The notes beneath the pieces were generated by a model. That model saw nothing but the letters and a program-made list of their open reading frames with translations, ran no database searches and was not told the origin of the DNA. A DNA stretch of 64,000 bases, taken from IMG/VR virus record IMGVR_UViG_3300032047_000003, positions 1 through 64,000 of that record, one strand, 5' to 3'. This DNA comes from a virus. Positions 19,504-36,044 of the stretch are shown piece by piece (position 1 is the first letter of the stretch; each line of letters begins with the position of its first letter). The translations under genes and the position numbers were made by a program.

Positions 19504-20082
19504 ATGGAAACAATAAAAACAATAGAAGCACCATGGCACTTAGAAGAGCCTCAATATTTTGGCCCAGAAACAAGATCTCTTTTTCTGTCTGCTCCAATAA
19601 ATAGCAAAACTACAAAAAATATCATAAGCCAATTACTAGAATTAAATGCAAGATCTAATAAACCTATTCGACTTTATTTGAATACAACGGGAGGAAGCCT
19701 TCCTGATGCCTTTGCTATATATGATACAATAAAAGCCATAGAATCTCCTGTGCACACTATAGCAAAAGGCCTTTGCGCTTCTGGAGGTTTAATAATACTA
19801 CTGGCTGGTTGCAAAAGATTTTCTTCAAAAAACTCTTTGTTTTTTTACCATCAACCGGTAATGTTTTTAGACCAAGTAAGCTCCATAGAGCAATCTAACG
19901 GACTTTCTGAAGCTTACACTTTATCAAAAGCTCTATTTGATGGTAAGATCATTTCAGAAACTAAAATAGATGCAGATCTTTGGGTTGAAAACTTTAAAAA
20001 CAGAACTTATAAATACTTTAATGCATCCGAAGCAAAAACTTTTGGATTCGTTGACGAAATTATAAAATATAACGAAGGGTAA
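19504..20082 (+). CDS. clpP: ClpP-family protease subunit (catalytic Asp appears substituted)
   Basis: LYLNTTGG, AIYDTI, GLCASGG (Ser), YHQP (His), ASEAKTFGFVDEI. Confidence 0.85.
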   Translation: METIKTIEAPWHLEEPQYFGPETRSLFLSAPINSKTTKNIISQLLELNARSNKPIRLYLNTTGGSLPDAFAIYDTIKAIESPVHTIAKGLCASGGLIILLAGCKRFSSKNSLFFYHQPVMFLDQVSSIEQSNGLSEAYTLSKALFDGKIISETKIDADLWVENFKNRTYKYFNASEAKTFGFVDEIIKYNEG

Positions 20083-21947: not shown

Positions 21948-22097
21948 TCATTTCTTAGAGTGATCTTTTTTGATCACTCTTTTTTTTATAACTTTTTTAT
22001 AATTAGATTTTTTTTTAGATTTACCCGAAACCTTTTTTTTGTTTCCTCAACCTTTCGTTTTGATACGCAAGCCATTCTTACTTTTAGATTTATGCAC
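21948..22097 (-). CDS. Lys-rich small ORF with one internal in-frame TGA (readthrough, selenocysteine or pseudogene)
   Basis: GAGGT RBS plus GTG start. MHKSKSKNGLRIKTKG*GNKKKVSGKSKKKSNYKKVIKKRVIKKDHSKK*, with TGA at 22047-22049. Fills the gap between its neighbours. Confidence 0.5.
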
Positions 22098-22099
22098 AA

Positions 22100-22438
22100 T
22101 TACCTCTTTTTCGATTTACTCTTACTAACCTTGGTTCCTTTTTTAGTCAATCTATACTTTGACTTCTTTCCTTTAATCTTTTTTTTCTCTGCAGAAAGTT
22201 TTGCTTTCTGAGATTTAGATAAAGAACCTGCTGTTCTTGGAGTTTTTGAAGAAACTTTATTTTTAGGACGACACTTCGGATAAGAACGCTTTTTGCCGTC
22301 TTTCCCTTTTCCCGTTCTACTTTTTCTTCCACACGGAGGGTGCTTTCCATCTTTACCTTTTTTAGAAATATCAACCCATTCTTCTTTAAACCAGCGTCTC
22401 AAAGAAGCTCCTGCTTTACTTTTTCTTTGTTTTGGCAT
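22100..22438 (-). CDS. small basic protein (WFKEEWVD...CGR...YPKCRP type)
   Basis: Start placed at MPKQRK with GGAGG upstream; Lys-rich with conserved-looking W/C core. Confidence 0.75.
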   Translation of the reverse strand: MPKQRKSKAGASLRRWFKEEWVDISKKGKDGKHPPCGRKSRTGKGKDGKKRSYPKCRPKNKVSSKTPRTAGSLSKSQKAKLSAEKKKIKGKKSKYRLTKKGTKVSKSKSKKR

Positions 22439-22619
22439 TTTTCTTTTTGCCTCCTTTACCCCAATTCTTTGCTCCCATTTTTCTACACTTAGATAAAGCT
22501 CCGCTACCATAAGCCGAAGGCCAAGTGCCTCCGCCTCTAGTGTATCTTGCTTTTACTTTTGTATAACAAGCATCTCTTCTTGGTTTTGCAACTTTTTTTT
22601 TCTTCCTTTTAGCAGGCAT
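22416..22619 (-). CDS. small basic protein (DACY...WPSAYGSGAL..CRK type)
   Basis: GGAGG upstream, TAATG overlap; Lys-rich. Confidence 0.75.
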   Translation of the reverse strand: MPAKRKKKKVAKPRRDACYTKVKARYTRGGGTWPSAYGSGALSKCRKMGAKNWGKGGKKKNAKTKKK

Positions 22620-22915
22620 TACTTTTTCCTCCTATAGGCGCCTTTCTTTGCACTGGGATTAGTAGTTTTCTTATTCTTGGGCCATAAGTCTCTACAAGCC
22701 CAGTACTTAGCAGACATCTTGTCTTTAGCACCATCGCAACCGTGACGAGCTCTAAAAGAGCTTTTAGCGCTTTTAGAATAGTTATGCTTATAGCCTTTAG
22801 CTCCATAATGAACGAGCTTTTCTTTTCCCCCAGAACATGCTTTAACCATTTTCTTTTTACCAGCTCTGTCTGATCTAGTAGGAGAATTGCATTTCATTTT
22901 ACTTTTGTCTGCCAT
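22619..22915 (-). CDS. small basic protein (SFRARHxC...YWAC type)
   Basis: AAGGAG RBS; Lys-rich with Cys/His/Trp core. Confidence 0.75.
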   Translation of the reverse strand: MADKSKMKCNSPTRSDRAGKKKMVKACSGGKEKLVHYGAKGYKHNYSKSAKSSFRARHGCDGAKDKMSAKYWACRDLWPKNKKTTNPSAKKGAYRRKK

Positions 22916-23096
22916 TTTTAACTCCTTTCTTTTTTGTAGATTTCTTTTTTCTCGATCTTAGGATTTTAAAATCTTCTTTATCTATTTTGCCGTTCTTATT
23001 AAGATCCAATTTTGATCTTTTTCCAATTACTTTTTTAGATCCAGCTTTCTTTTTAACTGGTGCCTTTTTAGTTGATTTTTTATTACTATAAGCCAT
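22899..23096 (-). CDS. small basic protein with EF-hand-like loop
   Basis: Start placed at MAYSNKK (GAGG RBS); DLNKNGKIDKED fits the DxNxNGxIDxxD/E loop. Confidence 0.7.
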   Translation of the reverse strand: MAYSNKKSTKKAPVKKKAGSKKVIGKRSKLDLNKNGKIDKEDFKILRSRKKKSTKKKGVKNGRQK

Positions 23097-23346
23097 TTTC
23101 AATATCCTCTTTATGAATCCAAACGCAAACAAATTGCTTAGGATCGACTTCTGCTAAAGTCTTAACAGCGTATGCTGGAACTTTAAACGCAAAGTAACTC
23201 CCCTGATTTTTCCAAGAACGTAAATGTTCGCATTCTATGTTTTCTAGTATTTCTGTATTGTATTTATCACCTATTCCTGGATACCAGTAATCGTAATAAC
23301 CCAATTCAGAAAGCTTCCCTTTTGTTCCTTTTTTTAAACTATACAT
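23086..23346 (-). CDS. hypothetical protein
   Basis: Start placed at MYSLKKG (GAGG RBS); overlaps both neighbours. Confidence 0.65.
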   Translation of the reverse strand: MYSLKKGTKGKLSELGYYDYWYPGIGDKYNTEILENIECEHLRSWKNQGSYFAFKVPAYAVKTLAEVDPKQFVCVWIHKEDIENGL

Positions 23347-23902
23347 TGTTTTCCTCTTCTGATTTATTAGCATATTTCACTCCCATTATAGTACCTATAA
23401 TAGAAAAAGAGTTAGTTAGTAATATTCCAAGTAAATTAGACCAAGTGCTTCCTATTAAAGTGGTCTCTTCAGAATTATACCATATTGCAAAGAAATATAA
23501 AACTGTTGTAATAATTCCTGTGCTTGCAATAATATATAAAGCATATCGAACTATTCGATTTATTAACTCGAACTGTCTCTTTCTTTGCATTAGGTCTAAA
23601 TCGTTTAGTGCTTCTTTTTTAGCATTCTCAGCTTCTTCTAAAGCTTCCTTCAACTCAACCATTAAATTTTCATTTTCTTTTGCTTTGCCTAATAAATTGT
23701 CGTTCTGATCTTGAATGACTTTCGTCAATTCAAGTCTTTGCTTTCTCTTTTCTGTGTCTTTTTCTAAGCATTCAGACAAATACTTTTTAAACTTTTCGCT
23801 ACCCTCAAAGACCTTAATGATATTGCCTTCTAGATTTATATTTAATCTTTCTGCAACCTCAATAAATTTAAGCTCTTCTGTTTCTGGTAGTACGATTTTC
23901 AT
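23339..23902 (-). CDS. coiled-coil protein with two C-terminal TM helices (holin-like or effector candidate)
   Basis: About 115-aa charged/coiled-coil N-terminus; TM1 YALYIIASTGIITTVLYFFAIWY; TM2 LLGILLTNSFSIIGTIMGV. ATGA-coupled to the receiver gene. Confidence 0.65.
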   Translation of the reverse strand: MKIVLPETEELKFIEVAERLNINLEGNIIKVFEGSEKFKKYLSECLEKDTEKRKQRLELTKVIQDQNDNLLGKAKENENLMVELKEALEEAENAKKEALNDLDLMQRKRQFELINRIVRYALYIIASTGIITTVLYFFAIWYNSEETTLIGSTWSNLLGILLTNSFSIIGTIMGVKYANKSEEENNV

Positions 23903-24339
23903 TGTGCATAAACCTTAAATGGCAAAGAACGGCTTTTATATCCAGCTAGATCTCTTTTAAAAGATTCCAATCTTGGTTCAATGTCATGAGATTTTACAAT
24001 CCAAAATTGAGCACCAGCATCTTTAGCTTTTTCCATCTCTATCTCGTCTTTAGAGCTAGAAATAATTCCAATAACAACGCCATTTCCGTATTGATAATTT
24101 ATTCGCCTGACCAGTTCAATCCCATCGAATGAAGATCCAATAATATTAAGATCTACAAAAACGCACTCTGGTTTTCCTGGAGACCCTTCGTAATATTTCT
24201 TAAACATGCTTTCTGCTTCTTCTGCCGTCGTCACGGATTGTAAACTTAAAGAAATATCCAAGATGCTGCAAGCATCTTCGAATACCAAATGGAACAAATT
24301 TTCATCGTCAATAAGCAATATGCTGTTGATTTCACTCAT
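23899..24339 (-). CDS. single-domain response regulator (REC only)
   Basis: ILLIDDE acidic pocket, phosphoacceptor Asp in VFVDLN, DGIELV, IISSS, AGA.FWIVK; no output domain. Confidence 0.92.
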   Translation of the reverse strand: MSEINSILLIDDENLFHLVFEDACSILDISLSLQSVTTAEEAESMFKKYYEGSPGKPECVFVDLNIIGSSFDGIELVRRINYQYGNGVVIGIISSSKDEIEMEKAKDAGAQFWIVKSHDIEPRLESFKRDLAGYKSRSLPFKVYAQ

Positions 24340-25106
24340 TTTATAATTATCCTCATAATAGTACCATCCGTAGTTTTTTTAGCTTCTAACTTATAACCAT
24401 GCTCATTAAATATTGTTTTTGCTATATTTAAACCCAATCCAGACCCTGGTTCCTTTTGGTTATCTTTCCTAGAGTAAGGTTTAGAATATTCTAAAAACTC
24501 TTTTTCCGACAAACCTCTACCGTTGTCCTTAACACATATAGCGTTGTCCTTGCAGTATATCTTTACAAATTTCTTTTTACTATCATTATATTTTAAACCA
24601 TTTCGAATCAAATTATCAATGCCGGTACAAAATAAAGAAACGTTTATTTCAATCTCAAGGTCTAAACAAATTTCTATTTGATCTGAATAAGCAGTTTTTT
24701 CTAAAAAACCATTCAAAACGACGCCTAAGTTTACTTTTTGTTTTGGTAGCTTTTTATCAAATTTTACTAAATCTGTAAAAGCGTAAACCCCTTCATAAAC
24801 TTTCCTTGTATGCTCTAGCCCTTCTTTCAATAATCTCAAAGAAGGTCCTAGCTTATATTTTTTAATTGCTTCAAACGGAATCCTTCTTTCCAAAGAAATT
24901 ATCCCCCTGGGAAGATAAGTATTTATTCCTGAATGCATGTCGTGCCTAATTATTTTAGCTGCATGTTCAAGATATATATTCTTTTGTTGTATCTCTTTGA
25001 ATTTAGAATAATTATCTTTTTTATATTTTCTTATAGTAATAAAAGAAATGACAGACATACCCGTCAAAAGGCCTCCCACTAGTATTAATCCATCTGAAAA
25101 AAGCAT
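24336..25106 (-). CDS. membrane-anchored histidine kinase (HK-B), intact CA domain
   Basis: Start at the TAATG overlap with GGAGAGG. N-terminal TM; H-box IRHDMHSG; N-box DNLIRNGLKYN; G1 VKDNGRG; G2 GSGLGL. Confidence 0.9.
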   Translation of the reverse strand: MLFSDGLILVGGLLTGMSVISFITIRKYKKDNYSKFKEIQQKNIYLEHAAKIIRHDMHSGINTYLPRGIISLERRIPFEAIKKYKLGPSLRLLKEGLEHTRKVYEGVYAFTDLVKFDKKLPKQKVNLGVVLNGFLEKTAYSDQIEICLDLEIEINVSLFCTGIDNLIRNGLKYNDSKKKFVKIYCKDNAICVKDNGRGLSEKEFLEYSKPYSRKDNQKEPGSGLGLNIAKTIFNEHGYKLEAKKTTDGTIMRIIIK

Positions 25107-26134
25107 TATCCTCTCCAATCTCTATTATCTATTATGTATTCTTTGTTTTTCATAATATTTATCCTAAAAACAGTTCCCTCATCCAGCTTCTCAGGCTCAA
25201 CGCTAAAACCATGCTCTTCTATAATTGCTACAGCAATATTTAACTCAAGACCTTGATAGTCTTCGTTTTCATCAAAATAAGGTTTGCAATATTTAATAAA
25301 ATCTTTTTTAGACAAACCGGTACCGTTGTCTTTTACGCATAAAGTGCTATCATCTTCCATGTAAATAAAAACTCTTTTAACTTCCGAGCAGTTATTTGTA
25401 ATTCCACCTTTTATTAAATTATCCAAAGCAGTAATGAATAGGACCTTGTGTACTTTCATTTTTGGCAATTTAGAAATTTTAACATTATCAGAATATGCAG
25501 AAAGCCTAATATGCTCCATCAAAAGAGCTCCTACGTCACACTCTTCTTTTTCAATACTGCCATCTCTAACTAAAGCGGTAAAAGCGTGAACTCCTTTGTA
25601 AACTTTTTGAGTGTACTCAAGCCCTTCCTTAAGCAAATGTATTTCACTCTCAAGTCCATGTTTGGACACTAAATCTTTTGGAAGCTTTTTTAATAAACCT
25701 TTGAGCCCTCTTGGAAGATATGTATTTATACCGCTGTGCATGTCATGTCTTATTACTTTAGCAGTATGGTCTAAGTATATCTTTCTCTGCAAAAGTTGCT
25801 CTTTGTTCCTAATCTTTTCTGATGCGCTATATATTATGCCATGGCGCTTTGCAAGCCAAGCGTCGTACTTTGGCCTATCACCCGGCATAAACTCCCCGAC
25901 TCTATAATGAGTTGGAAGCTTGACCTCGTTTTCTTGAATAAAGACACTAGTAACCGCAATGCACACAAGTCTTATTCGATCATATTTATTTATAATCACC
26001 CCTTCTATTTGCTTCGAATCTTTTTCTGCAAATAAAAATCTAGGAGCTTGATCGTACTGTTCGAACGAAACCGGATCATAAAAGTCTATAATATCCCATC
26101 TTAAAGAAAACCATTCTCCAGCTTTTGCTTCCAT
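25106..26134 (-). CDS. histidine-kinase paralog (HK-A) with degenerate ATP-binding motifs
   Basis: Same H-box IRHDMHSGINTYLPRG and G1 VKDNGTG, but N-box DNLIKGGITNN and G2 YQGLEL; about 115-aa unknown soluble N-terminal domain. Confidence 0.85.
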   Translation of the reverse strand: MEAKAGEWFSLRWDIIDFYDPVSFEQYDQAPRFLFAEKDSKQIEGVIINKYDRIRLVCIAVTSVFIQENEVKLPTHYRVGEFMPGDRPKYDAWLAKRHGIIYSASEKIRNKEQLLQRKIYLDHTAKVIRHDMHSGINTYLPRGLKGLLKKLPKDLVSKHGLESEIHLLKEGLEYTQKVYKGVHAFTALVRDGSIEKEECDVGALLMEHIRLSAYSDNVKISKLPKMKVHKVLFITALDNLIKGGITNNCSEVKRVFIYMEDDSTLCVKDNGTGLSKKDFIKYCKPYFDENEDYQGLELNIAVAIIEEHGFSVEPEKLDEGTVFRINIMKNKEYIIDNRDWRG

Positions 26135-26141
26135 TTTACTT

Positions 26142-27020
26142 TTACTCTTTTAATAATTTGACTAAATCCAAACCACCACAATCTATTTTCTTAGATGTTT
26201 GATGGTAGTGATGTATAAAGCCTTTAAACTCCTTTAGCTTGGGTTTTGAAAGAGTGTCAGTGTACTGACTACCCGTAATGTTTTTGGGCGTCTCTAAAGG
26301 GATACCAAGGCCTTTGTTTATTGCCTTCGCTAAAGCCTTCATAGCTTCTTTTTGAACAGGATAAAAATCTAAATGATCTTCTAGTTTTCTTCCGTTGACA
26401 ATAGAATCAGTTAAAAGGTCTCTTTCTCCAAAACCATTTTTCACGTACCAGCTTTGATATTTTGGATAGTAAGCATTTGCTATCTCCACTCCAACCGCCC
26501 TGCTGTTCACAGAGCCAGCGTGCCATGCTACATGAGTGGTATCTAAAGTTTGATAAATAGTTCCATCGTTATCAATAAGAAAGTGAACGCTTATACCTCT
26601 TTTGTCCAAGACTCTTTGGCAAATTTTAGAAGACAAGCAAACGTCCCAATGCGTTACGAACAAATCTATTCCCCGCTGTCCGTTGACCTTTTTATAGTTT
26701 CCTTCTTTTGCCTTAAGGCCTCCTTTGTCGGTCCATAAAACAACTTTGTCCCAATCAATATCCACAGGATTGCCATGGCATATAATGTAGTCGCTATAAT
26801 TAGCATCCACATTCTCTTCTTCAAGCTCTGCAGCCCTTTCCGAAAACTTTCTACGAAAAGTTCCCGGTCCGCACATACCATCTTGAGAAACTCCCATTTC
26901 TTTTTGAAAATCTTTAATAGCATCAATTAGCTCCTCGTTGAAATCGGAACAACCAAACCACTCTGGCTCCCAACCTAATTTTTTAGAAGTACTAATATTA
27001 TATTCAATCTTTTGACTCAT
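26142..27020 (-). CDS. endolysin: peptidoglycan-binding domain + N-acetylmuramoyl-L-alanine amidase (Amidase_2 type)
   Basis: AIKDFQ.EMG...DGMCGPGT (PG binding); VTHW, SVHFLIDNDGTIYQ, AWHAG, GVEI, IHH, KIDC zinc-amidase motifs. Confidence 0.9.
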   Translation of the reverse strand: MSQKIEYNISTSKKLGWEPEWFGCSDFNEELIDAIKDFQKEMGVSQDGMCGPGTFRRKFSERAAELEEENVDANYSDYIICHGNPVDIDWDKVVLWTDKGGLKAKEGNYKKVNGQRGIDLFVTHWDVCLSSKICQRVLDKRGISVHFLIDNDGTIYQTLDTTHVAWHAGSVNSRAVGVEIANAYYPKYQSWYVKNGFGERDLLTDSIVNGRKLEDHLDFYPVQKEAMKALAKAINKGLGIPLETPKNITGSQYTDTLSKPKLKEFKGFIHHYHQTSKKIDCGGLDLVKLLKE

Positions 27021-27411
27021 ATTTCAAACCCCTATATTTTAACCAAGAAAATCTTTTTCTATTCTTCCAATAATCAAGATCTTCTTGATTGGAATAAGCT
27101 TCCCGTTCAAACGGGATTAAGTAATAAGCTGACTTACTGTTTTTTGTTAAGATTAAGTATTTAAACCAATAATAGTAATAAAAAGCAGGAAACAAAATTA
27201 CAAATAAATCTAAATACTGTTGCCAATGTATATTTTCGTGGCTTCTAGTAGTTTCGCTAATTGTATCCCTACAGAATACAAATGGCCCTATGGTTATAGC
27301 ATTTATATCTATGGGAGCAAAAATAGAAAGCAGTCTAGGGACTGCACTATTTTCAAAAAATATAGCTGACCAGTTTTTAGAACAACCTTTACCTAAAATG
27401 CATTTACTCAT
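27004..27411 (-). CDS. HExxH zinc-peptidase-like membrane-associated protein
   Basis: AITIGPFVF, HENIHWQQ, hydrophobic segment, IPFEREAY. Confidence 0.7.
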   Translation of the reverse strand: MSKCILGKGCSKNWSAIFFENSAVPRLLSIFAPIDINAITIGPFVFCRDTISETTRSHENIHWQQYLDLFVILFPAFYYYYWFKYLILTKNSKSAYYLIPFEREAYSNQEDLDYWKNRKRFSWLKYRGLKYESKD

Positions 27412-27746
27412 TTCTTTTTATTCCTTGCAATAGTTTTCTTTTTTGAAGCCTCTTTACGCTTGACTGCATAGTCCAAAGCTTTCTTCAAACGTTTTTTAAC
27501 GTCAGGATCTTTGGCTCTAGCATGAGCAGCTCTAACTCTCTGATGAACTAAATTTATTACTTGAGATTGTCTTTTATGGCTTTTAGATTTAAAAGATTTT
27601 TTAGCAAAGGTTTCACGAATGTCTTTAGCTGTAGAAAACTTTACCCTAACAGTATCCTTAGGATTTTCGTCAGTGTAAAGTCTTCTTTTACTATTCTTAG
27701 GTTTCTTACCTGTACCTTTTTTAGGATCTGATTTTTTCTTAGCCAT
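27408..27746 (-). CDS. small basic protein (KGTGKKP...RLYTDENPKDT type)
   Basis: AAGGA RBS; Lys/Arg-rich. Confidence 0.75.
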   Translation of the reverse strand: MAKKKSDPKKGTGKKPKNSKRRLYTDENPKDTVRVKFSTAKDIRETFAKKSFKSKSHKRQSQVINLVHQRVRAAHARAKDPDVKKRLKKALDYAVKRKEASKKKTIARNKKK

Positions 27747-27767
27747 AACACAATTTCCTTTTGTAAT

Positions 27768-27914
27768 TTATTTCTTATAAGACCCTTTCTTTTTAGATTT
27801 AGATTTAGATTTTTTCTTATCTGTCATTTTCTTTGTAGGTTTTTTGGCTGCTTTCTTTTTACCGTATCCTTTTGGAGCGGCTGATTTATATGATTTCCCA
27901 CCTGCTACTGGCAT
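27768..27914 (-). CDS. 48-aa Lys-rich protein
   Basis: Start placed at MPVAGGK (AGGAG RBS); histone-tail-like composition. Confidence 0.7.
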   Translation of the reverse strand: MPVAGGKSYKSAAPKGYGKKKAAKKPTKKMTDKKKSKSKSKKKGSYKK

Positions 27915-28013
27915 GATTATTCTCCTGTTAAATATTTTAATAATTGCTCTACCTATATTATCATCTTTAGTAAACATTTTTCTAGTAGTATAAATAACGA
28001 TCCTATGTCCACC

Positions 28014-28685
28014 TTATAATTTTTCGACCATAGCTTTGATTCTTCTATAAAGTGGCGTTTTCCTAATATTTAAAACTATTTCTCTTTTCTTTTCAAAATT
28101 TTTGTTTATGTGTGACACCCATTTTGGATCGTATCCTAATGTTTTTAGTTTTCTCCAAAGGAGCTTATCGTCAAACAATAAATTTTCATATGATATTAAC
28201 TCTTTATTCTCAATCTTTTCCAATAGTTCTTTTTGTATTTTAATTACTGCTTTACATAAATTTTCTAAAGTTTGATTTTTTTCCTTTTTTGAATCTATCC
28301 CCAGTATATTTATTGGCCAAAACCATTCTCTTAAATAAAGAGTGTATATTGTATCTTCTAGATCTCTTCTTATAACAAGCACTTTGTAATCTTCGTTTTC
28401 GTTCAAGAATCTAACTGTATGTAAGGGCTGAGCTACACTCTTGATAAGGTAACCTTTAGAATACTTTTCTAAAACAGATTTAGTATTTTGATATTGATAG
28501 TAATTGTGTCTGCCGTGTTTCTTTTCTATATTGGGAAATTCTAACTGAATATGATTTAAAACATCTCCATCGTGCCAAATTTTTGGATCTAAAATTTTCA
28601 ATTCGTCTTCAAGCATATGCGAGGCATGCTTATATATTAAGCTACTCATACTTCTTGGCAATCCTACAATAATTAAAGATTTCAT
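28014..28685 (-). CDS. sulfotransferase-like P-loop protein
   Basis: Start at ATGA overlap. IIVGLPRSMSS (5'-PSB-like), IRRDLEDTIYT (3'-PB-like), ISYENL. Confidence 0.65.
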   Translation of the reverse strand: MKSLIIVGLPRSMSSLIYKHASHMLEDELKILDPKIWHDGDVLNHIQLEFPNIEKKHGRHNYYQYQNTKSVLEKYSKGYLIKSVAQPLHTVRFLNENEDYKVLVIRRDLEDTIYTLYLREWFWPINILGIDSKKEKNQTLENLCKAVIKIQKELLEKIENKELISYENLLFDDKLLWRKLKTLGYDPKWVSHINKNFEKKREIVLNIRKTPLYRRIKAMVEKL

Positions 28686-29254
28686 TTTTTCACTCTTTGG
28701 AGCCAAGCGCAATTAGCTACATGGTCTCCAAACATAATATATTTTTTCCGGTCCATTTCTTCATCTACAACCCTTTCGATTCCTGGACATCTTTCAAATT
28801 TGTAATCGTGGTATCCTATTACCCCACCTACAGATATTCTGTTTTCTAAAAATCCATAAGTATAAGATGTAGGTTTATACAAATCCATGTCTAAAAATCC
28901 AAAACAAAACTTTTTATTTTTTAAATTTTTCATTAAGGTTTCTTCTACTAAGCCAGCAATAGGAATAATATAATTTTCGACACCAGCTTTTTTTACATTT
29001 TTCCAAAAAGTTTCAAAAGAAGCCGTACACTCGCCTTTCTTTAGCATTGAATCAATTCCTTCAATACCGTTATAAGGCAGTCCATTGTACGTGTCGCACG
29101 CATATATCTTCTTATTTGAATTAAACTTTTTTAAAACTTTAGCTAAAGCTATAGTTGTTTGCCCCTCGAATACTCCACATTCGATTACATCTCCTTGAGC
29201 CGCCAAACAAAGCTTCAACGCCTCAGCTGCTTTTTCAGATCTTTTACAACTCAC
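28682..29254 (-). CDS. TylF/MycF-family O-methyltransferase
   Basis: GDVIECGVFEG, CDTYNGLP, GLVEETL, LDMDLYKPT, GGVIGYHDY. Confidence 0.88.
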   Translation of the reverse strand: MSCKRSEKAAEALKLCLAAQGDVIECGVFEGQTTIALAKVLKKFNSNKKIYACDTYNGLPYNGIEGIDSMLKKGECTASFETFWKNVKKAGVENYIIPIAGLVEETLMKNLKNKKFCFGFLDMDLYKPTSYTYGFLENRISVGGVIGYHDYKFERCPGIERVVDEEMDRKKYIMFGDHVANCAWLQRVKK

Positions 29255-30201
29255 AACATCTCCTTAATTTTGTTTAAAACTTTTTCGGGCTTTAAATCTT
29301 TCATACATTTTATATTTATTGGACAGGCTTTATACCAACATCCTAAACAATCTAATTCTTCTAATCTAATTGACTTATGCGTAGAATAATGATTTATTCT
29401 ACTTGAAGGAGGTATGGACCCAAATACAACTAAAGATTTAGTTTTTACCGCAGCAGCTAGATGCATTAAACCTGAATCAGGTCCAAAAAACAAATCGCAC
29501 CTTTTAATATAGGAAGCTGTTTGTCTAATGTCTAATCGAGAAATATCGATAACTCTCTCATTGTATTTTTGATTCTTTAAAACTCTATTAAAATCTGAAA
29601 CAAAAATCACACTACTCGGATACTCTTTCTTTAAAAGATTAATTAGTTTTTTAGTATTCCGCCAATCATAACTTCTTTTCCCTTCATTAGAAGCAGAGTG
29701 TATAAAAAACTTTAATTTATTTTCGTAATCCTTAAAAAATGCATCCGCTGCATCACTTTCTTTTTTAGTTTCTAAATAAAAAGGAATCCAATTTTTTATT
29801 TCACGAACTTTACATGCTTTTGCAAAGATATCAATCCTATTGCATTCTGGCCTCCCAGAATGTTCATGTTCAATACATACACTCTTTATATTGAAGTATT
29901 TTTTATATTTCTCTCTAACTACATATCTTGAATCTTCAAACTTATCTATAAAAGGAGCATTAAATAGCAACTTGTAATAAGTATCATCGTAAGTCGTATG
30001 CCTATCTAAAGAAACAGTGAGTTTTGTATTTGGATATTGTTTTTTAAACTCTCTTATAGCTACACTAGCCATAAGAACATCTCCTATACCACCAACTGGT
30101 CTATCAATGCAAATCTCTCCAGAACTAAAACCCCCAGACCTCCTATTAGAAACTCTTTCAGGTTTTTTTATGACTCTGTATTTCTTATTCAAGTATTTCA
30201 T
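29251..30201 (-). CDS. glycosyltransferase family 9 (heptosyltransferase-like)
   Basis: GGIGDVLM, CDLFFGPDSGLMHLAAA, VVFGS, C-terminal CLGC...CP...CM. Confidence 0.9.
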   Translation of the reverse strand: MKYLNKKYRVIKKPERVSNRRSGGFSSGEICIDRPVGGIGDVLMASVAIREFKKQYPNTKLTVSLDRHTTYDDTYYKLLFNAPFIDKFEDSRYVVREKYKKYFNIKSVCIEHEHSGRPECNRIDIFAKACKVREIKNWIPFYLETKKESDAADAFFKDYENKLKFFIHSASNEGKRSYDWRNTKKLINLLKKEYPSSVIFVSDFNRVLKNQKYNERVIDISRLDIRQTASYIKRCDLFFGPDSGLMHLAAAVKTKSLVVFGSIPPSSRINHYSTHKSIRLEELDCLGCWYKACPINIKCMKDLKPEKVLNKIKEML

Positions 30202-33200
30202 GTTGTTGGAGCGTTGCCTAAATAAGGATGGCCTGCTGGTAGTGAATTTTCAATCGAAAACTTATGCATCAAATACCCTTCTATTTTCTGTCTTTGCGTT
30301 TCAGTTAACTCTTCGTCAAAAAGTAAAAACTCTCCAAGCTCAAAACTACTAAAAGAATGATCAAATGTTTGCGAAGGGTTGGTGCTATTCCAGTCAGGAA
30401 ATCTTCCAATTCTCATATCAGGGCTATTCGCCCAATCAAAATTTGTAGACTGAGGAATATCTTGAGTGGAATATTTGGTTCCATTTACGTAAATACCTCT
30501 TCTCGAAGCATCTGCTCCATTGCCAAAAACAACTTCAATTAAAAATATTTGATTAACCCCTACAGCTCCAGTCAAACCGGCATCTCTGGAATTTGAATTA
30601 TTATCAAATCTCAAGTAAGTACTATAAGTATTATTGACTAGTTTTTCTCTGTGAAGTCTAAGTTGCAATCCTCTGCCTATACTAAACAATCTTGCTACTG
30701 TATGGTCAGTGGTACTTGTGTTCAGTTCATCTCCAATCGCATCAGCGACGTTGTCTTGCTCCAGCTTCACCAACATGAATACGGAACCTACACCATCGCC
30801 ACTAGAACTGTCAAAAGTGCTAAATACACTGTTGTAATCACTAGAAATGCTTTCGTGATTTGTGTGATCGAAAGAAAGGAATCTGTTTCCGTTGCTACTG
30901 TAAACAAGTTCAGGTCTATTTTCTGATCCACTAGAATCGACATTTCCTGAACTGGACTCAAATACTAAAGAATTACTCTGACTCGTCCAGCTCACTAAAT
31001 TAATAGTATTTGTATTAATATCAATTACTTCTGTAACAGACTCATCTTCTTTCAACCAGACTATCATTTCTGTACTGTGGTCGTCTGAAGGCTCCCACGT
31101 TATATTCGCACTCGTCACAGTCATAGTTGAGTTGTAACTAGCTTCAACGGAATTAACGTCTTGAATCAAATACCCATTGCCGCTATTGCTTGTGTAAGAC
31201 AACTGGCTACCATCAATAATTTCTTCTAAGCAATAATCAAAAGTGCAATCTTCTGCTTCTCTTACTATAACGGAAGAATAGCCATTTACCGTAGATACTG
31301 AGCTGTACTTTCCAAAACTATCTAATTGCAACTCCGTTCCATTACTGTCTAAAAATTGCAATTCAAAAGGCACTGCAACTTCCCAATCTGGACAATAATT
31401 GCAAACACTCGAATTAGGCAGCCCTCCTGAAAGACCAAAGTCAAAAGAAGCAAAAGGGTTAATCCTTTCAAACTCGCACAACTCCTCAGTGAAAGATTCT
31501 CTTAAAGTAAACTCTTCTAAATATATATCTATGTCAATTTCTCCATCAGGCGGATAATAATCTTTAGCCCCTGTAGGCGAAGAGCTCAAAGCGCCTATCA
31601 AATTCACACCCCACCTTCCAGAATCTACACCCCACGTAATAACTTCTAAAGTGTCGTACGCTTTTATCTCGCAGCTTTCTAAAGGAAACAAACGATAACC
31701 AATTCTTGAATTAACAAAAGCTGCGTTGTAGTAAGACAATATGTTCTGTACGTTCGAATCAGAAACAGGATGTATTGTAGTGCTTAAAGCCGTCATGTAA
31801 AAAACTTTACCTGGCCATTCCGTTAAAGTAATCGCTACTTCAGCGGTACCATTTACCATTAACACTCCTTCTTCTGAAACTACATCTATAAACCAACCTT
31901 CATCTCCTACCTGTAGAGGTATTTGACTAGAATTTAAATGAGAAGGTAGGGTTATAGTATTAATTGTCCCCCTTACGTAATAGTGAGTTCCAGAATTCAT
32001 TCCAGTAGAAGACTTACTGACAATAGGAACATTTTCCACTACATTGCTTTTTAATTTATTGTTGAAATCTTCTAGAGCGTAAGTGTAAGTTTCTGAAGTA
32101 AAAGACAAATACCTTCTGTGTCTAAAAGGATTTGTAAACTCAAAATCAAACCTATCTTTCGACAAACCTCCGCTTCCCAATAAATTTATTTGATAACCAG
32201 CTTCCAATTCACTAAGAGAATCAAAAGAAGAAGTCAGCAGTTCCCCTGCTTTCGAAGAGTATTCATACAAATCAAACTCTACCCCTTCTCCCTTAAAATA
32301 AATATTAACTTTGTCTTCATCACCAATACTTGATTTTCCAACAGTTAAAATTAGCTTTGCTTTCCATTTTGAAAAGAAATTTCTAAATGCATTCTTTGCT
32401 AAAACCGAACTTTTTAAAGTTTTGTTAACGGAACCAAGACTTTTATAGTAGTCGTCTGCAGCATTAGGATGGTAATCTTTTTCAATATAATCTGGAATAG
32501 AGCTGTATTCAGGAGTAAAGTATATATTTCTAGGATCCTCAACACAAGAGTCCGCAGGCCTCAACACTACACTGATCCCTGATAAATCTTGACTGGATAA
32601 ACCTGACATGGATCGATAAGTCTCTCCATTCAAAGAAAGAGTTTGTTTAAATATTTCAGAAGAAGCGACTGATCCAAAAATACCTTCTAGAATGTTATCT
32701 AAATTTTCTTCTATGTCCATGTTCTCATCAAAGCATTTGCTTCCGTTTTGATTCTTAAACATGTTGTATCCACTTAGTTGAATCTCATATCGTTTTCCTG
32801 GCGCTAAACTTAAAGTTTGACTAGTGCAACTCCATCTATTTAGAAAAGCCTCCTGAGCATATGTTTCCAAGTTGTCAGGCACTCCTCCCAGCGAGTCAGA
32901 TCCACCGCTAAAATTAACAGAAAGAACAGTGCCCGAAGGATTTGGAGAGGCATCTACAGTTGGTATTGAAGTATTACCATCAACTCCATGTTGAGATTGA
33001 GTCAAGTAAACAGAATAAGTGCTTTTTTGTATTGCTTTTAAAATTACAAACTTATCACTTGGACCATTTTGGTTGTGCCCGTTAGCTCCGTTTATTGCAT
33101 CAATAAAATTATCTAAAGCCTTTTCAAATCTTAAAACAGTTTGAGTAGTAGGACTTGAGCCCGTCAAATCGTCACCGTTCAAAAAGACAACTTCACTTCC

Positions 33201-36044
33201 ATCTAGGTCTCCGTTATTGTGAACGGCTGCGGAACTTGATTCACACCTATAAGTAATTGAAGTACCGTCTGTAGATTCTAGAGTAACTTTAGACCCTGAA
33301 GCTAAATTCGTGTTTCCAAAATCAGCCATAAACATGACTCTACCTTCAGCAGTGCCAGGGCCTCGAACTGGCAAACATTCAATAGTAGACGCCAAGCCTC
33401 CTGAAAATCCATTTAAAGTTACATAATTTAAAGAAGAACCATTTGAAGTGATCGGAGTATTAAATCTTTCACCATAGTCTCTTGCCTCTAAATTCACAGT
33501 AGCTTGAGTTACTACGGGGTTGAAATCAGCAGTAAATCCAGAAGCAGAAATTGCATCTCCTAAGTTGACTGCCATTTCCTCTTTGCTTAAGCCAGTATAA
33601 AAATAATAATTAAAAGTATTTGGATTTTGAGTTCCATCTAAAGCAGGATCGTTAGTTGATTCATATACAAGAATTTCATGAAAAATATTTAAATTTGGAA
33701 CATCGTCAACGACTCTTCTCAAGTTTACAATCCAACCTGGATTGGCAAATCCCAAATCAGTTATTTCTATACTTCCAGTAGCTTTTATTGGGCTCCCTGC
33801 CAAAGCCATATAAGCTGCTGCGTACTGATGTCCCGCTAGTTCAAATTTTGCAAACTCAGTAGAAAATTCAATTTCAGTTCCATTTCTTGCAATTCCGTCT
33901 ATTGTTTCTCCATTCACTCTAGAAACAATAGAAAGTTGACTAGCAATCGCATCCCCAACTTGATATCCACCAGAATCAAAAATAGCATCTTCTCCAAGCT
34001 CCCACCATTCTGCAACTTTATCGTTAACCCAACTGTTGGCTCCAAATATATCTTTGTATTTTCTTTCTCCAAAAATGCTACTTGCTTCAATTGAAGTCAA
34101 ACGGTCTGAGTAAATTACGAAATCTTCTAAAGCGCCTCTAAAGTCTCTGCAAGGAGAAACAGGAAAAGCGAACAAAGAATAATACTCTTGGCTAGAAATT
34201 CCAGAAGTATTGCCAGAATCAAGGATTCCGCTTAACGCATTACTATACAAGCTTCCGTCTAAGTAAAGCTCTACTGTTGAAGAGTTTGTAAATTCCAAAT
34301 CCAGAACAATTGAAAAATGCTTCCAATTCAATTCTAAACCTTCTTCCGTAATGTCTATTAATCGATACAAGAAGCCTGTAGAACTTTTAACGTACATTAC
34401 AAGATGCTCGTTCATTTCCTGACCTTGGCTTATAGTTACGTTAGAATATTCTGGATCCAAAGGATGGTTTTTAGGATAGTCTAAAATCAATTCAAAATTA
34501 ACAACATTGTTTGCGTCGTAAATGCAAAATATAACCTGTTTTCCCGCATCTCCGCCTATCCAGTCAGCATACTGCTTGTTTAACCAAAAAGACAAAGACA
34601 TTCCCCTTCCTCCTAGGGAAGAAGGCTCCAGAACGTATTCGTTTAAAGTCTGTATTTTACCTGACAAATTAGCAGCTGTACCACTGTTGATTGGGGAGCC
34701 AGAATTTATTTGCAAAGCTCTATCAATTACCGCGGGTACTTGAACATTATAATTATACTCAAAACAACATTCTGGTTCTAAAAAATCAGAATAGTAATCA
34801 ATTGCACGAATTGGAGAAATTGCTTTTTGACCCAATATGCTTTTAGAAGTCATTCCTATGCTTGAAGAATTATCTTCAATTACCATAGTAGAATCACTCA
34901 ATTTTGATACCGTTATGTTTCCTGAACCTTTTATAAAAGTTCCATCTACTTTTGTCGAATCCATGTTTAAAACTAATTCGACGCCATCTGCAGCAGTATC
35001 AACTTTATTAGAATATAGTTTCGCATCCACAGTGATGTTGTTGCTGCTTTCTGTCAAGGTAATACCGTTGCCTTCCCTCAACGCAATAGACGTAATATTG
35101 TTAGAGCTATCAGTTAAATCTAAACTGACGATAGTTGACGAAACCGTACTCGAAGTAAGAGTGTAAGTAGACCCACCAGAACCACCCGTAGAACTAATCT
35201 CTATTTGGTTGGTATTATTGTTGTATCCTACCGTGGTATTGCCTAGTCCAATAATTTCAACCCCATCATAAGCTACTCCATTGTTTTCCAATTTAATAGT
35301 CGCCCCACCATTAATAGAACCAGCTCCTATTTCTACTAATGGGCAGTTTGGATCCCAAGCTATATCGCAAGTGCTAATGTTTAAAAATAATTCAGGATAC
35401 GCATTCTCACAAGAAAAGTCTCCTGAAAGATCTGGCCCTCCTTTTATTACTTGAGAAAAAATTTCATATAAATGCCTTTGAAATGAAAATTGTAGCTTTT
35501 CGTTTCCACTACAATTAGGGTCCAAGTCGCAAGCGTATATATCTTTATACAAAGTTCTTATATTCAAATCATTGCAATGAATTAAAGATCTAATCTCTGA
35601 ATCATCATACTCTTCAATTTCAAACTCTTCGCTAAGGATTGAGTCAATTTTGGAAGAAAGGCAATAGATAGCCCCTGTAATGGAATTAGGTTGACCTCTA
35701 GTTCCATCCCATAAGCAAGGTAAACCATGCTCAGTCGCCCAAGGCTCGGCAGTAACTGTCCAGCCGCTTACCCCTCCTCTTTCTGGATCTAATATGTCAT
35801 ACTCAGCCCAAGGTGCTGATCTGAATCCAGAGTATTTTGCATAAGGGCTTCTTTCAGGCCCATTGAATACTGGATATATGAATCTCTGCCAGTTGTAAAC
35901 GTAATTCGATTCAAAGTTTTTAACAGACTTTAAGAAAGATATCCTATCTCCTTCTCTTTCCAAAGACATAATAGACACCGTCTGTTGATATACTTGTTTT
36001 ATTAAACTTTGAAAATTTTCCTTTCCTAATGTTTCGTTAATCAT
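30198..36044 (-). CDS. large tail fibre / receptor-binding protein with LamG-like domains
   Basis: Short beta repeats near the N-terminus. LamG pattern SLSFW...WKHF...LYLDG...FRGALEDFVIYS. Second LamG-like C-terminal domain ending IEGYLMHKF...LPAGHPY. Confidence 0.75.
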   Translation of the reverse strand: MINETLGKENFQSLIKQVYQQTVSIMSLEREGDRISFLKSVKNFESNYVYNWQRFIYPVFNGPERSPYAKYSGFRSAPWAEYDILDPERGGVSGWTVTAEPWATEHGLPCLWDGTRGQPNSITGAIYCLSSKIDSILSEEFEIEEYDDSEIRSLIHCNDLNIRTLYKDIYACDLDPNCSGNEKLQFSFQRHLYEIFSQVIKGGPDLSGDFSCENAYPELFLNISTCDIAWDPNCPLVEIGAGSINGGATIKLENNGVAYDGVEIIGLGNTTVGYNNNTNQIEISSTGGSGGSTYTLTSSTVSSTIVSLDLTDSSNNITSIALREGNGITLTESSNNITVDAKLYSNKVDTAADGVELVLNMDSTKVDGTFIKGSGNITVSKLSDSTMVIEDNSSSIGMTSKSILGQKAISPIRAIDYYSDFLEPECCFEYNYNVQVPAVIDRALQINSGSPINSGTAANLSGKIQTLNEYVLEPSSLGGRGMSLSFWLNKQYADWIGGDAGKQVIFCIYDANNVVNFELILDYPKNHPLDPEYSNVTISQGQEMNEHLVMYVKSSTGFLYRLIDITEEGLELNWKHFSIVLDLEFTNSSTVELYLDGSLYSNALSGILDSGNTSGISSQEYYSLFAFPVSPCRDFRGALEDFVIYSDRLTSIEASSIFGERKYKDIFGANSWVNDKVAEWWELGEDAIFDSGGYQVGDAIASQLSIVSRVNGETIDGIARNGTEIEFSTEFAKFELAGHQYAAAYMALAGSPIKATGSIEITDLGFANPGWIVNLRRVVDDVPNLNIFHEILVYESTNDPALDGTQNPNTFNYYFYTGLSKEEMAVNLGDAISASGFTADFNPVVTQATVNLEARDYGERFNTPITSNGSSLNYVTLNGFSGGLASTIECLPVRGPGTAEGRVMFMADFGNTNLASGSKVTLESTDGTSITYRCESSSAAVHNNGDLDGSEVVFLNGDDLTGSSPTTQTVLRFEKALDNFIDAINGANGHNQNGPSDKFVILKAIQKSTYSVYLTQSQHGVDGNTSIPTVDASPNPSGTVLSVNFSGGSDSLGGVPDNLETYAQEAFLNRWSCTSQTLSLAPGKRYEIQLSGYNMFKNQNGSKCFDENMDIEENLDNILEGIFGSVASSEIFKQTLSLNGETYRSMSGLSSQDLSGISVVLRPADSCVEDPRNIYFTPEYSSIPDYIEKDYHPNAADDYYKSLGSVNKTLKSSVLAKNAFRNFFSKWKAKLILTVGKSSIGDEDKVNIYFKGEGVEFDLYEYSSKAGELLTSSFDSLSELEAGYQINLLGSGGLSKDRFDFEFTNPFRHRRYLSFTSETYTYALEDFNNKLKSNVVENVPIVSKSSTGMNSGTHYYVRGTINTITLPSHLNSSQIPLQVGDEGWFIDVVSEEGVLMVNGTAEVAITLTEWPGKVFYMTALSTTIHPVSDSNVQNILSYYNAAFVNSRIGYRLFPLESCEIKAYDTLEVITWGVDSGRWGVNLIGALSSSPTGAKDYYPPDGEIDIDIYLEEFTLRESFTEELCEFERINPFASFDFGLSGGLPNSSVCNYCPDWEVAVPFELQFLDSNGTELQLDSFGKYSSVSTVNGYSSVIVREAEDCTFDYCLEEIIDGSQLSYTSNSGNGYLIQDVNSVEASYNSTMTVTSANITWEPSDDHSTEMIVWLKEDESVTEVIDINTNTINLVSWTSQSNSLVFESSSGNVDSSGSENRPELVYSSNGNRFLSFDHTNHESISSDYNSVFSTFDSSSGDGVGSVFMLVKLEQDNVADAIGDELNTSTTDHTVARLFSIGRGLQLRLHREKLVNNTYSTYLRFDNNSNSRDAGLTGAVGVNQIFLIEVVFGNGADASRRGIYVNGTKYSTQDIPQSTNFDWANSPDMRIGRFPDWNSTNPSQTFDHSFSSFELGEFLLFDEELTETQRQKIEGYLMHKFSIENSLPAGHPYLGNAPTT

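Follow-up and report, generated by a model that had tools for sequence, protein, structure and literature searches.

A phage-encoded histidine kinase, receiver, and membrane hairpin as a conserved signaling module: a comparative case for lysis control

Introduction

The timing of lysis sets the latent period and burst size of a phage, and phages are known to control it by holin clocks and, in a few cases, by antiholins (RI and RIII of T4, for instance). The locus described here raises the question of what histidine kinases and a response regulator without a DNA-binding domain might do next to an endolysin gene in a virus. It lies in the first 64 kb (64,000 nucleotides; hereafter, the window) of a linear IMG/VR virus record of 111.6 kb (IMGVR_UViG_3300032047_000003; ~73% complete according to CheckV), where six minus-strand genes at 23339 to 27411 encode a small HExxH protein, an Amidase_2 endolysin, two paralogous histidine kinases (HK-A and HK-B), a receiver-only response regulator (REC), and a coiled-coil protein with two transmembrane (TM) helices, to which we refer as the hairpin protein. 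An earlier reading of this DNA, made from the letters only (the sequence-only reading), had taken the block for a phosphorelay embedded in a lysis operon, in which phosphorylated REC would act on the membrane protein to time lysis or would rewire host signaling. All six open reading frames (ORFs) that it had described, closely packed on the minus strand, are present at these coordinates.

Comparison of related loci makes a good case that the kinase, REC, and hairpin genes (the triad) form a real, widespread, and phage-only signaling unit with a membrane output, and that this unit would serve lysis control. On balance, we consider it somewhat probable that the locus encodes a two-component relay that has a membrane protein instead of a transcription factor as its output and that tunes lysis. 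In such a relay, a kinase would autophosphorylate on the His of an RHDMHSG motif; HK-B would provide a membrane anchor and a canonical ATP site, and HK-A, with its soluble N-terminal sensor domain and altered ATP site, would modulate or partner HK-B. The phosphate would move to Asp63 of the single-domain receiver, which in its phosphorylated form would engage the N-terminal domain and the basic helix of the hairpin protein, and the signal would run along a register-preserving coiled-coil stalk to the two-helix membrane hairpin. There, the hairpin would act in the lysis machinery, most likely as an antiholin- or holin-like regulator of hole formation, and the state of the infected cell would decide whether the endolysin is set free early or late. 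The genes with their catalytic residues and conservation, the domain swaps, and the neighborhood counts are observed; the phosphotransfer, the contact between receiver and hairpin, and the effect on the membrane and on lysis timing we infer from them. If true, the module would give viruses a new and modular means of making lysis conditional on host state. As members of the relay family are present in uncultured phages from marine and fresh waters, on hundreds of contigs, the rates of viral lysis in the ocean could respond to host physiology through it, and it would offer a compact test case, made up of a sensor, a heptad-quantized stalk, and a hairpin, for nontranscriptional two-component output.

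Conservation and distribution of the module

A scan of IMG/VR with HK-B yielded 121 relatives, from which 80 loci were kept, and in ~78 of these 80 the kinase, REC, and hairpin genes follow each other in that order. The conserved synteny that had been predicted for these three genes is borne out also when counted from the hairpin, since REC is encoded in the locus for 154 of 156 distinct hairpin proteins that carry the N-terminal domain (N-domain) described below. The stop codon of REC shares 1 or 4 nt with the start codon of the hairpin gene in 118 of the 165 distinct pairs. The constant components are REC and the hairpin; the kinases of the relatives range from 270 to 720 aa and differ in their N-terminal sensors (TM helices only, PAS, GAF, or the domain found in HK-A). 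Judged from this gene order, kinase, REC, and hairpin are the conserved core unit.

The hairpin family comprises 255 representative clusters at an E value of ≤1e-3. It occurs in 4 of 185,579 species genomes, in each case on a contig of a metagenome-assembled genome that holds the whole triad (the four belong to different phyla), and its ESM Atlas clusters are 100% viral. A mainly chromosomal distribution, which would have counted against the sequence-only reading, is therefore not seen, and the module is phage specific. Its phages are diverse in composition, the contigs ranging from 33 to 67% GC. The notion that two-component systems are rare in phages needs qualifying, given that the H-box pattern of these kinases is present in at least 591 IMG/VR viral stretches and thus in hundreds of uncultured viral contigs.

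The hairpin protein as output

The hairpin protein (187 aa; 23339 to 23902, minus strand) starts with the small N-domain (residues 1 to ~50) and a conserved basic helix (RKQRLELTKVIQDQN; 23702 to 23746), followed by a stalk helix that is continuous with the first TM helix (TM1; 23480 to 23545), an outer loop, and a second TM helix (TM2; WSNLLGILLTNSFSIIGTIMGVKYA; 23369 to 23443) that is nearly invariant (WSNxFGILLTNSFSIxGTIMGVKYA). The AlphaFold2 (AF2) model (pLDDT 85) has one helix from residue 36 to 142, which becomes TM1, a four-residue outer loop, and a helix from 147 to 186. When compared with the PDB by Foldseek, this model matched nothing at an E value of ≤0.001. Between two conserved anchors, the stalk measures 30, 37, 44, 51, 58, 65, 72, or 79 residues, that is, 37 + 7n, in 162 of 164 unique proteins, and the two exceptions measure 90 residues (79 + 11). 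Eight length classes in heptad phase are what would be expected of a signal-transmitting coiled coil.

In other phages, the N-domain is replaced on the same stalk and hairpin by a GAF domain (P0030), a PAS domain (P0042 and P0057), or two PAS domains (P0054). These sensor-fused hairpins come without the relay: neither a kinase nor REC was found in any of the 37 PAS-type loci (3-kb flanks) or in the GAF-type loci L085 to L087. Because sensors are fused directly to the hairpin where kinase and REC are missing, and this within lysis cassettes, the best reading of these sequences is that the hairpin behaves as the output and the N-domain as the input. Likewise, the sensor swaps, the complementarity of REC and sensors, and the heptad stalk together make a path that leads from a sensor, or from a kinase via REC, to the N terminus and along the stalk to the hairpin the best reading of the module as a whole. 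Along this path, REC would contact the N-domain.

Four divergent proteins (P0128, P0133, P0141, and P0145) carry the same N-domain and stalk on a HisKA-HATPase_c core, which suggests that the N-domain is an input module able to drive different outputs. No fusion of the P0128 type turned up in the IMG/VR scan, and the metagenome scan gave unrelated kinases only (24 to 27% identity). Possibly, the wiring is the reverse of what we propose, with the hairpin lying upstream, as a membrane sensor or accessory in control of HK-B, in the manner of LiaF or BceAB with intramembrane-sensing kinases, and with the target of the receiver elsewhere. HK-B, with a TM helix only and no sensor domain, would suit such an arrangement, and the kinase fusions indicate that the N-domain and stalk can drive a kinase. 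We nevertheless consider reverse wiring improbable, as the hairpin fusions, which have neither a kinase nor REC in their vicinity, place sensors N-terminally and the hairpin C-terminally, related phages have kinases (270 to 720 aa) that bear varied sensors of their own, and REC would be left without any output.

The receiver

REC (146 aa; 23899 to 24339, minus strand) matches Response_reg over residues 7 to 120 (1.5e-9; 38.4 bits versus a cutoff of 30.2). This is its sole domain in Pfam and NCBIfam, and the absence of a DNA-binding output domain that had been noted from the letters is thereby corroborated. The acid pocket (D11/D12; 24301 to 24318), the phosphoacceptor D63 (within 24145 to 24159), S94 to S96, and K116 are in place, followed by a conserved C-terminal extension; these DD/D/S/K residues are invariant in 60 orthologues, at a mean column identity of 81%. 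REC is the only receiver in the record. Its best NCBIfam models (NarL, EvgA, and CheY type) all remain far below their cutoffs, and its best solved relative, 3ilh, reaches merely 5e-6.

Single-domain receivers such as DivK, CpdR, and CheY, which contacts FliM, act by protein contact. REC is like them in being receiver-only with an intact DD/D/S/K set, so its output would have to be a protein-protein interaction; it differs in that it lacks a specific subfamily match and that its proposed partner is a new membrane protein. Conceivably, phosphorylated REC might instead take over host signaling by acting, as these receivers do, on host targets such as motility components, kinases, or proteolysis adaptors, with the hairpin as an accessory or anchor. 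The established mode of action of single-domain receivers would permit this, and the identity of REC between phages, 62 to 73% versus 40 to 60% for its neighbors, would fit a protein with several binding partners. In phage V22, moreover, a CheY-like gene has been listed as an auxiliary gene (PMC7289586). However, REC and the kinase are absent where the hairpin has its own PAS or GAF domain (0 of 37), so that REC is dispensable exactly where input is direct. Translation of REC is coupled to that of the hairpin in most phages, and the wide GC range of the hosts makes a single conserved host target less likely. We believe, therefore, that there is little chance of a host takeover being the main function of REC.

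The histidine kinases

HK-A (342 aa; 25106 to 26134, minus strand) has a soluble N-terminal domain of ~100 aa in front of its DHp and CA domains. HK-B (24336 to 25118, minus strand) is 260 aa long if translated from a TTG and 256 aa long if translated from the ATG at 25106; it lacks a sensor domain and contains a single N-terminal TM helix. The two are paralogous, as had been claimed, with 46% identity over 220 aa, and share the H-box IRHDMHSGINTY (25718 to 25753 in HK-A and 24915 to 24950 in HK-B). The consensus of both kinases, YLEHxAKxIRHDMHSGINTYxPRG, is invariant, and its RHD is invariant also in alignments of 16 and 53 kinases. The Pfam models HisKA and HisKA_3 do not match this H-box, and the putative phosphoacceptor among its three His residues was assigned by alignment to the SHELRTPL pattern. 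HK-B is canonical in its other boxes (N-box, DNLIRNG; G1, DNGRGL; G2, GSGLGL). It matches HATPase_c at 3.4e-11, above the cutoff, as well as the CA domains of CpxA, EnvZ, and HK853, and it matches the NCBIfam ArsS-family histidine kinase model at 1.5e-20, below the cutoff of that model.

The earlier description of HK-A needs correcting in that its ATP-binding boxes are noncanonical. Its N-box, DNLIKGG (25403 to 25423), has Gly in place of Asn, and its G2 box, QGLEL (25241 to 25255), has Glu in place of Gly, and HATPase_c is matched at 1.3e-5 with 26.0 bits, just under the cutoff of 26.4. In its AF2 model (pLDDT 80), the DHp-CA core aligns with solved histidine kinases (Z score of 15.3 and root mean square deviation of 3.1 over 148 residues, with a bacteriophytochrome kinase domain); structural alignment of the whole model returned kinase cores only, with no fold match for the N-terminal ~100 aa. 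Among 53 kinases that share this N-terminal domain, 35 have the N-box Gly, exactly those 35 carry Glu or Asp in G2, and the other 18 are canonical at both sites. This covariation points to a conserved sublineage, not to decay. The altered form is accompanied by a second kinase here and in locus L173, which are two observations only; canonical HK-A-type kinases can stand alone (L174, L175, and L181).

HK-A thus resembles a protein of the kinase family in its fold, but, judged by the N-box Asn and the G2 glycines, its ATP-dependent autophosphorylation is doubtful. The changes could reflect a metal ligand relocated to the carboxylate, a pseudokinase, a phosphatase, or a partner of HK-B. We think that HK-A probably modulates or partners HK-B, and it provides, in any case, a natural instance of a kinase paralogue that has been conserved with a changed ATP pocket. 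DesK, LiaS, and BceS exemplify the intramembrane-sensing or minimal histidine kinases. HK-B and many of its orthologues are reminiscent of these in having just one or two TM helices, without an extracytoplasmic domain, in front of DHp-CA, but their H-box falls outside HisKA and HisKA_3, and there is no ABC transporter or LiaF-like partner.

Association with lysis genes

The proximity of triads to lysin genes was assessed with a few lysin profiles in loci that extend 3 kb or more to either side. Of 65 nonredundant triad loci, 36 (a lower bound) have a lysin within 3 kb, and 20 of 64 have one within 500 bp; by our rough estimate, fewer than 10% would be expected by chance in genomes of 100 to 200 kb. 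The lysins belong to GH19, phrog_33083-like, GH24, DUF5675, and Amidase_2 types. The commonest neighborhood consists of a small 2-TM protein, a GH19 + PG_binding_1 endolysin, a Phage_holin_4_1 holin, a 62-aa TM protein, the kinase, REC, and the hairpin; in other loci, a GH24 lysozyme, a phrog_33083-like lysin, or DUF5675 fills the same slot, and in some the lysis genes lie just 3' of the hairpin instead. PAS-fused hairpins have a lysin within 3 kb in 29 of 37 loci and are often encoded between a small TM gene and the endolysin, the typical order for sensor-fused hairpins being small 2-TM protein, hairpin, GH19 endolysin, and Phage_holin_4_1. That the lysins vary in family, order, and orientation speaks for an association that has recurred. 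What is conserved is a tendency to adjoin an endolysin of varying family.

In the window, the endolysin (292 aa; 26142 to 27020, minus strand) combines a PG_binding_1-like N-terminal domain (2.5e-4; 21.6 bits, just under the cutoff of 23) with an Amidase_2 catalytic domain (4.5e-17; 63.1 bits versus a cutoff of 26). It matches phrog_1493 at 1.7e-15 and several other endolysin PHROGs, and no signal peptide is evident. The HExxH protein (135 aa; 27004 to 27411, minus strand; HENIH at residues 58 to 62, 27226 to 27240) matches phrog_15610, annotated as a protease, at 1.3e-22 and has no match in Pfam or NCBIfam. Neither the Amidase_2 nor the HExxH gene was found near the triad in any relative, and the triad is absent from all 47 loci of amidase homologues. 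The exact linkage is thus unique to the present phage, though real, and the HExxH protein is window specific and outside the conserved module. The linkage to an endolysin that the sequence-only reading had proposed therefore survives as proximity to some lysin, not as the Amidase_2/HExxH unit, and its placement of the module in a lysis operon has to be given up as a conserved feature.

Its proposal that the two-helix protein is the output, as a holin or antiholin, is likewise borne out in part. A role as output agrees with the sensor fusions, but many cassettes already hold a canonical Phage_holin_4_1 holin along with a small 2-TM protein, which makes it more plausible that the hairpin regulates hole formation, perhaps as an antiholin-like partner, than that it alone forms the hole. 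Class II holins and pinholins have two TM helices with both termini inside. The hairpin shares with them two helices joined by a short outer loop, a TM2 rich in small and polar residues with a GxxxG motif (GTIMG), and, in many loci, the neighborhood of lysis cassettes; it differs by its cytoplasmic N-terminal domain and stalk (together ~115 aa), its short C-terminal tail, and the lack of a family match.

Several observations weigh against a function of the relay in lysis. About 45% of the triad loci have no recognized lysin within 3 kb, the nearest relatives (L001, L003, L007, L041, and L080) have none even within 6 kb, and related loci share ancestry, so that the lysin counts are not independent events. 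The record, ~73% complete, has no recognizable holin for the hairpin to regulate. The hairpin itself matches no Pfam, PHROG, or NCBIfam family, holin families included (E ≤ 0.01 to 0.1), and at 187 aa with a cytoplasmic part of ~115 aa is unlike typical small holins. The N-domain could itself be a sensor and not a receiver-binding module. Finally, no cultured phage in INPHARED carries the kinase or the region, and the record has no close cultured relative.

Some of these points would also suit a relay that drives a hairpin with another membrane role, such as superinfection exclusion, a controlled leak of ions or proton motive force that reprograms host metabolism, or interference with a membrane-bound defense of the host, in which case the proximity of lysins would reflect the clustering of late membrane genes. 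The loci without a lysin, the closest relatives among them, and the lack of resemblance to holin families speak for such a role, as does TM2, which is nearly invariant across phages of 33 to 67% GC and would fit a universal membrane target or self-assembly. In contrast, sensor-fused hairpin genes lie between or beside the small 2-TM protein and endolysin genes in 29 of 37 loci, and the juxtaposition recurs, in different orders, with lysins of unrelated families (four or five at the least), which is hard to explain without a functional link. We therefore regard a nonlysis role as rather unlikely and retain a relay that tunes lysis as the preferred reading. In this phage, the hairpin gene lies 2.2 kb from the endolysin gene; in many relatives, although not all, it is adjacent to or inside the lysis cassette.

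A more general proposal, which we put forward tentatively and rate as possible rather than probable, is that of a widespread phage-only, signal-gated lysis switch. The hairpin would be driven, via a register-locked coiled coil, either by fused PAS or GAF sensors or by a phage kinase-to-receiver relay, uncultured aquatic phages would set their latent period by a cue sensed inside the cell, and in the present lineage a second kinase, with its altered ATP site (Asn to Gly and Gly to Glu), would add an input or a phosphatase arm.

Four further protein clusters recur in these neighborhoods. Three are small membrane proteins without family that adjoin the triad or a sensor-hairpin gene (L006, L009, L014, L024, and others): cluster 3 (62 aa), cluster 5 (~83 aa), and cluster 10 (~115 aa). 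The 2-TM protein of cluster 5 almost always adjoins PAS-fused hairpins and may be a partner or a holin. None of the three has a homologue in the present record, and profiles of the small TM cassette proteins of relatives and of the Phage_holin_4_1 holin had no match in its 111.6 kb. Cluster 8 is encoded directly 3' of the hairpin gene in 14 loci (L062, 5121 to 6290, and 13 others); this protein of 389 aa begins with TM helices, continues as a long coiled coil, and has an EF-hand-like motif at its C terminus.

Relation to known systems

In staphylococci, the holin/antiholin-like LrgAB and CidAB are under the control of LytSR, a two-component system thereby linked, as is proposed for the present module, to membrane proteins of holin type and to the activity of murein hydrolases. 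LytSR (PMC2996381) is chromosomal, however, and LytR is a transcriptional regulator with a LytTR DNA-binding domain, whereas here a phage-only receiver without DNA-binding domain is proposed to act by protein contact. Of the LytSR domains, 5TM-Lyt, His_kinase, and LytTR were not detected in the six proteins.

Lysis inhibition in T4 involves holin T and the antiholins RI, which is periplasmic, and RIII, which is cytoplasmic (PMC11413866, PMC8385771). The parallel is that a phage-encoded input shifts the firing of a membrane lysis protein through a dedicated posttranslational regulator. The T4 system, in contrast, works by direct binding of small antiholins without phosphorylation and has no sequence or architectural similarity to the module. 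Moreover, it senses superinfection in the periplasm, whereas the sensors discussed here (PAS, GAF, and the N-domain of HK-A) are predicted to be cytoplasmic or intramembrane.

We found no paper that describes a phage kinase-receiver-membrane module, and a survey of jumbo phages mentions only a different receiver that is not linked to a kinase (PMC7824862). New, to the best of our knowledge, are the setting beside an Amidase_2 gene, the pair of kinases with a covarying change in the ATP site, the heptad quantization of the stalk, the fusions of N-domain and kinase, and the counts for REC/sensor complementarity.

Genomic context and neighboring genes

The minus strand holds every gene from ~63.9 kb down to 22.1 kb, and the six-gene block lies at the 3' end of this long, structural (late-type) array, with a bidirectional terminator at 21957 to 21980, shortly past the module. 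The HExxH and endolysin genes overlap by 17 nt, and 7 nt separate the endolysin gene from HK-A downstream of it. HK-A and HK-B meet in a TAATG overlap provided that HK-B is read from the ATG at 25106, which is preceded by a GGAGAGG Shine-Dalgarno sequence, and both the HK-B/REC and the REC/hairpin junctions are ATGA. The block of six genes recognized earlier is real, but coupling does not end there: the stop codon of the hairpin gene, after TM2, overlaps the start of a gene for an 86-aa protein, and lysine-rich genes follow up to the terminator. A scan for sigma-70 promoters gave fewer matches than expected from shuffled sequence and was uninformative. The amidase/HK-A junction is spanned by error-free short contigs from two other marine studies (X2, 26017 to 26301; X4, 26046 to 26196), which indicates that the arrangement is real and no assembly chimera. 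A marine metagenome contig of 154,073 bp holds the whole stretch from 22000 to 29000, and the phage genome is thus larger than the 111.6-kb record. Near-identical fragments of this stretch are present in several marine and seawater studies; among the public runs listed as containing it, none is an RNA run.

The 86-aa soluble protein (23086 to 23345, minus strand), whose ATG overlaps the hairpin stop codon, has no family in Pfam, PHROG, or NCBIfam; a homologue is encoded directly 3' of the hairpin gene in L001/L175, and it may be an accessory. An alternative-frame ORF within the amidase gene (26666 to 26926, minus strand), likewise of 86 aa, was considered as an embedded holin. It encodes one strongly hydrophobic helix and a charged tail and is probably due to chance; neither its position nor its hydrophobicity is conserved across the 47 amidase homologue loci, and it was rejected. 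The rest of the 111.6-kb record has no GH24 or SLT match.

The record has a GC content of ~33% and encodes a baseplate wedge protein, a primase-helicase, and a DnaE-like polymerase; a search for tRNA genes found none and hence gave no clue to the host. On the minus strand, a chain of small, very lysine-rich basic ORFs (67 to 136 aa) that are translationally coupled to the module flanks it at 22100 to 23132 and 27408 to 27977. One of them matches DUF5872 and one phrog_33950, the ORF at 22899 to 23132 has a subthreshold EF-hand-like loop (DLNKNGKIDKEDF), and an ORF of 98 aa has homologues near the triad in L003, L070, L174, and L181. Between the tail genes and the lysis/signaling block, at 28014 to 30201 on the minus strand, lie a GT9 heptosyltransferase-like gene, a TylF-like methyltransferase gene, and an unassigned gene for a 232-aa protein. 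The structural array includes two giant minus-strand ORFs, at 30198 to 36044 (1948 aa) and at 55916 to 64000 (>2658 aa), and PHROG matches are missing for most of the large structural ORFs between them. On the plus strand, a gene for a ClpP protease lies at 19504 to 20082.

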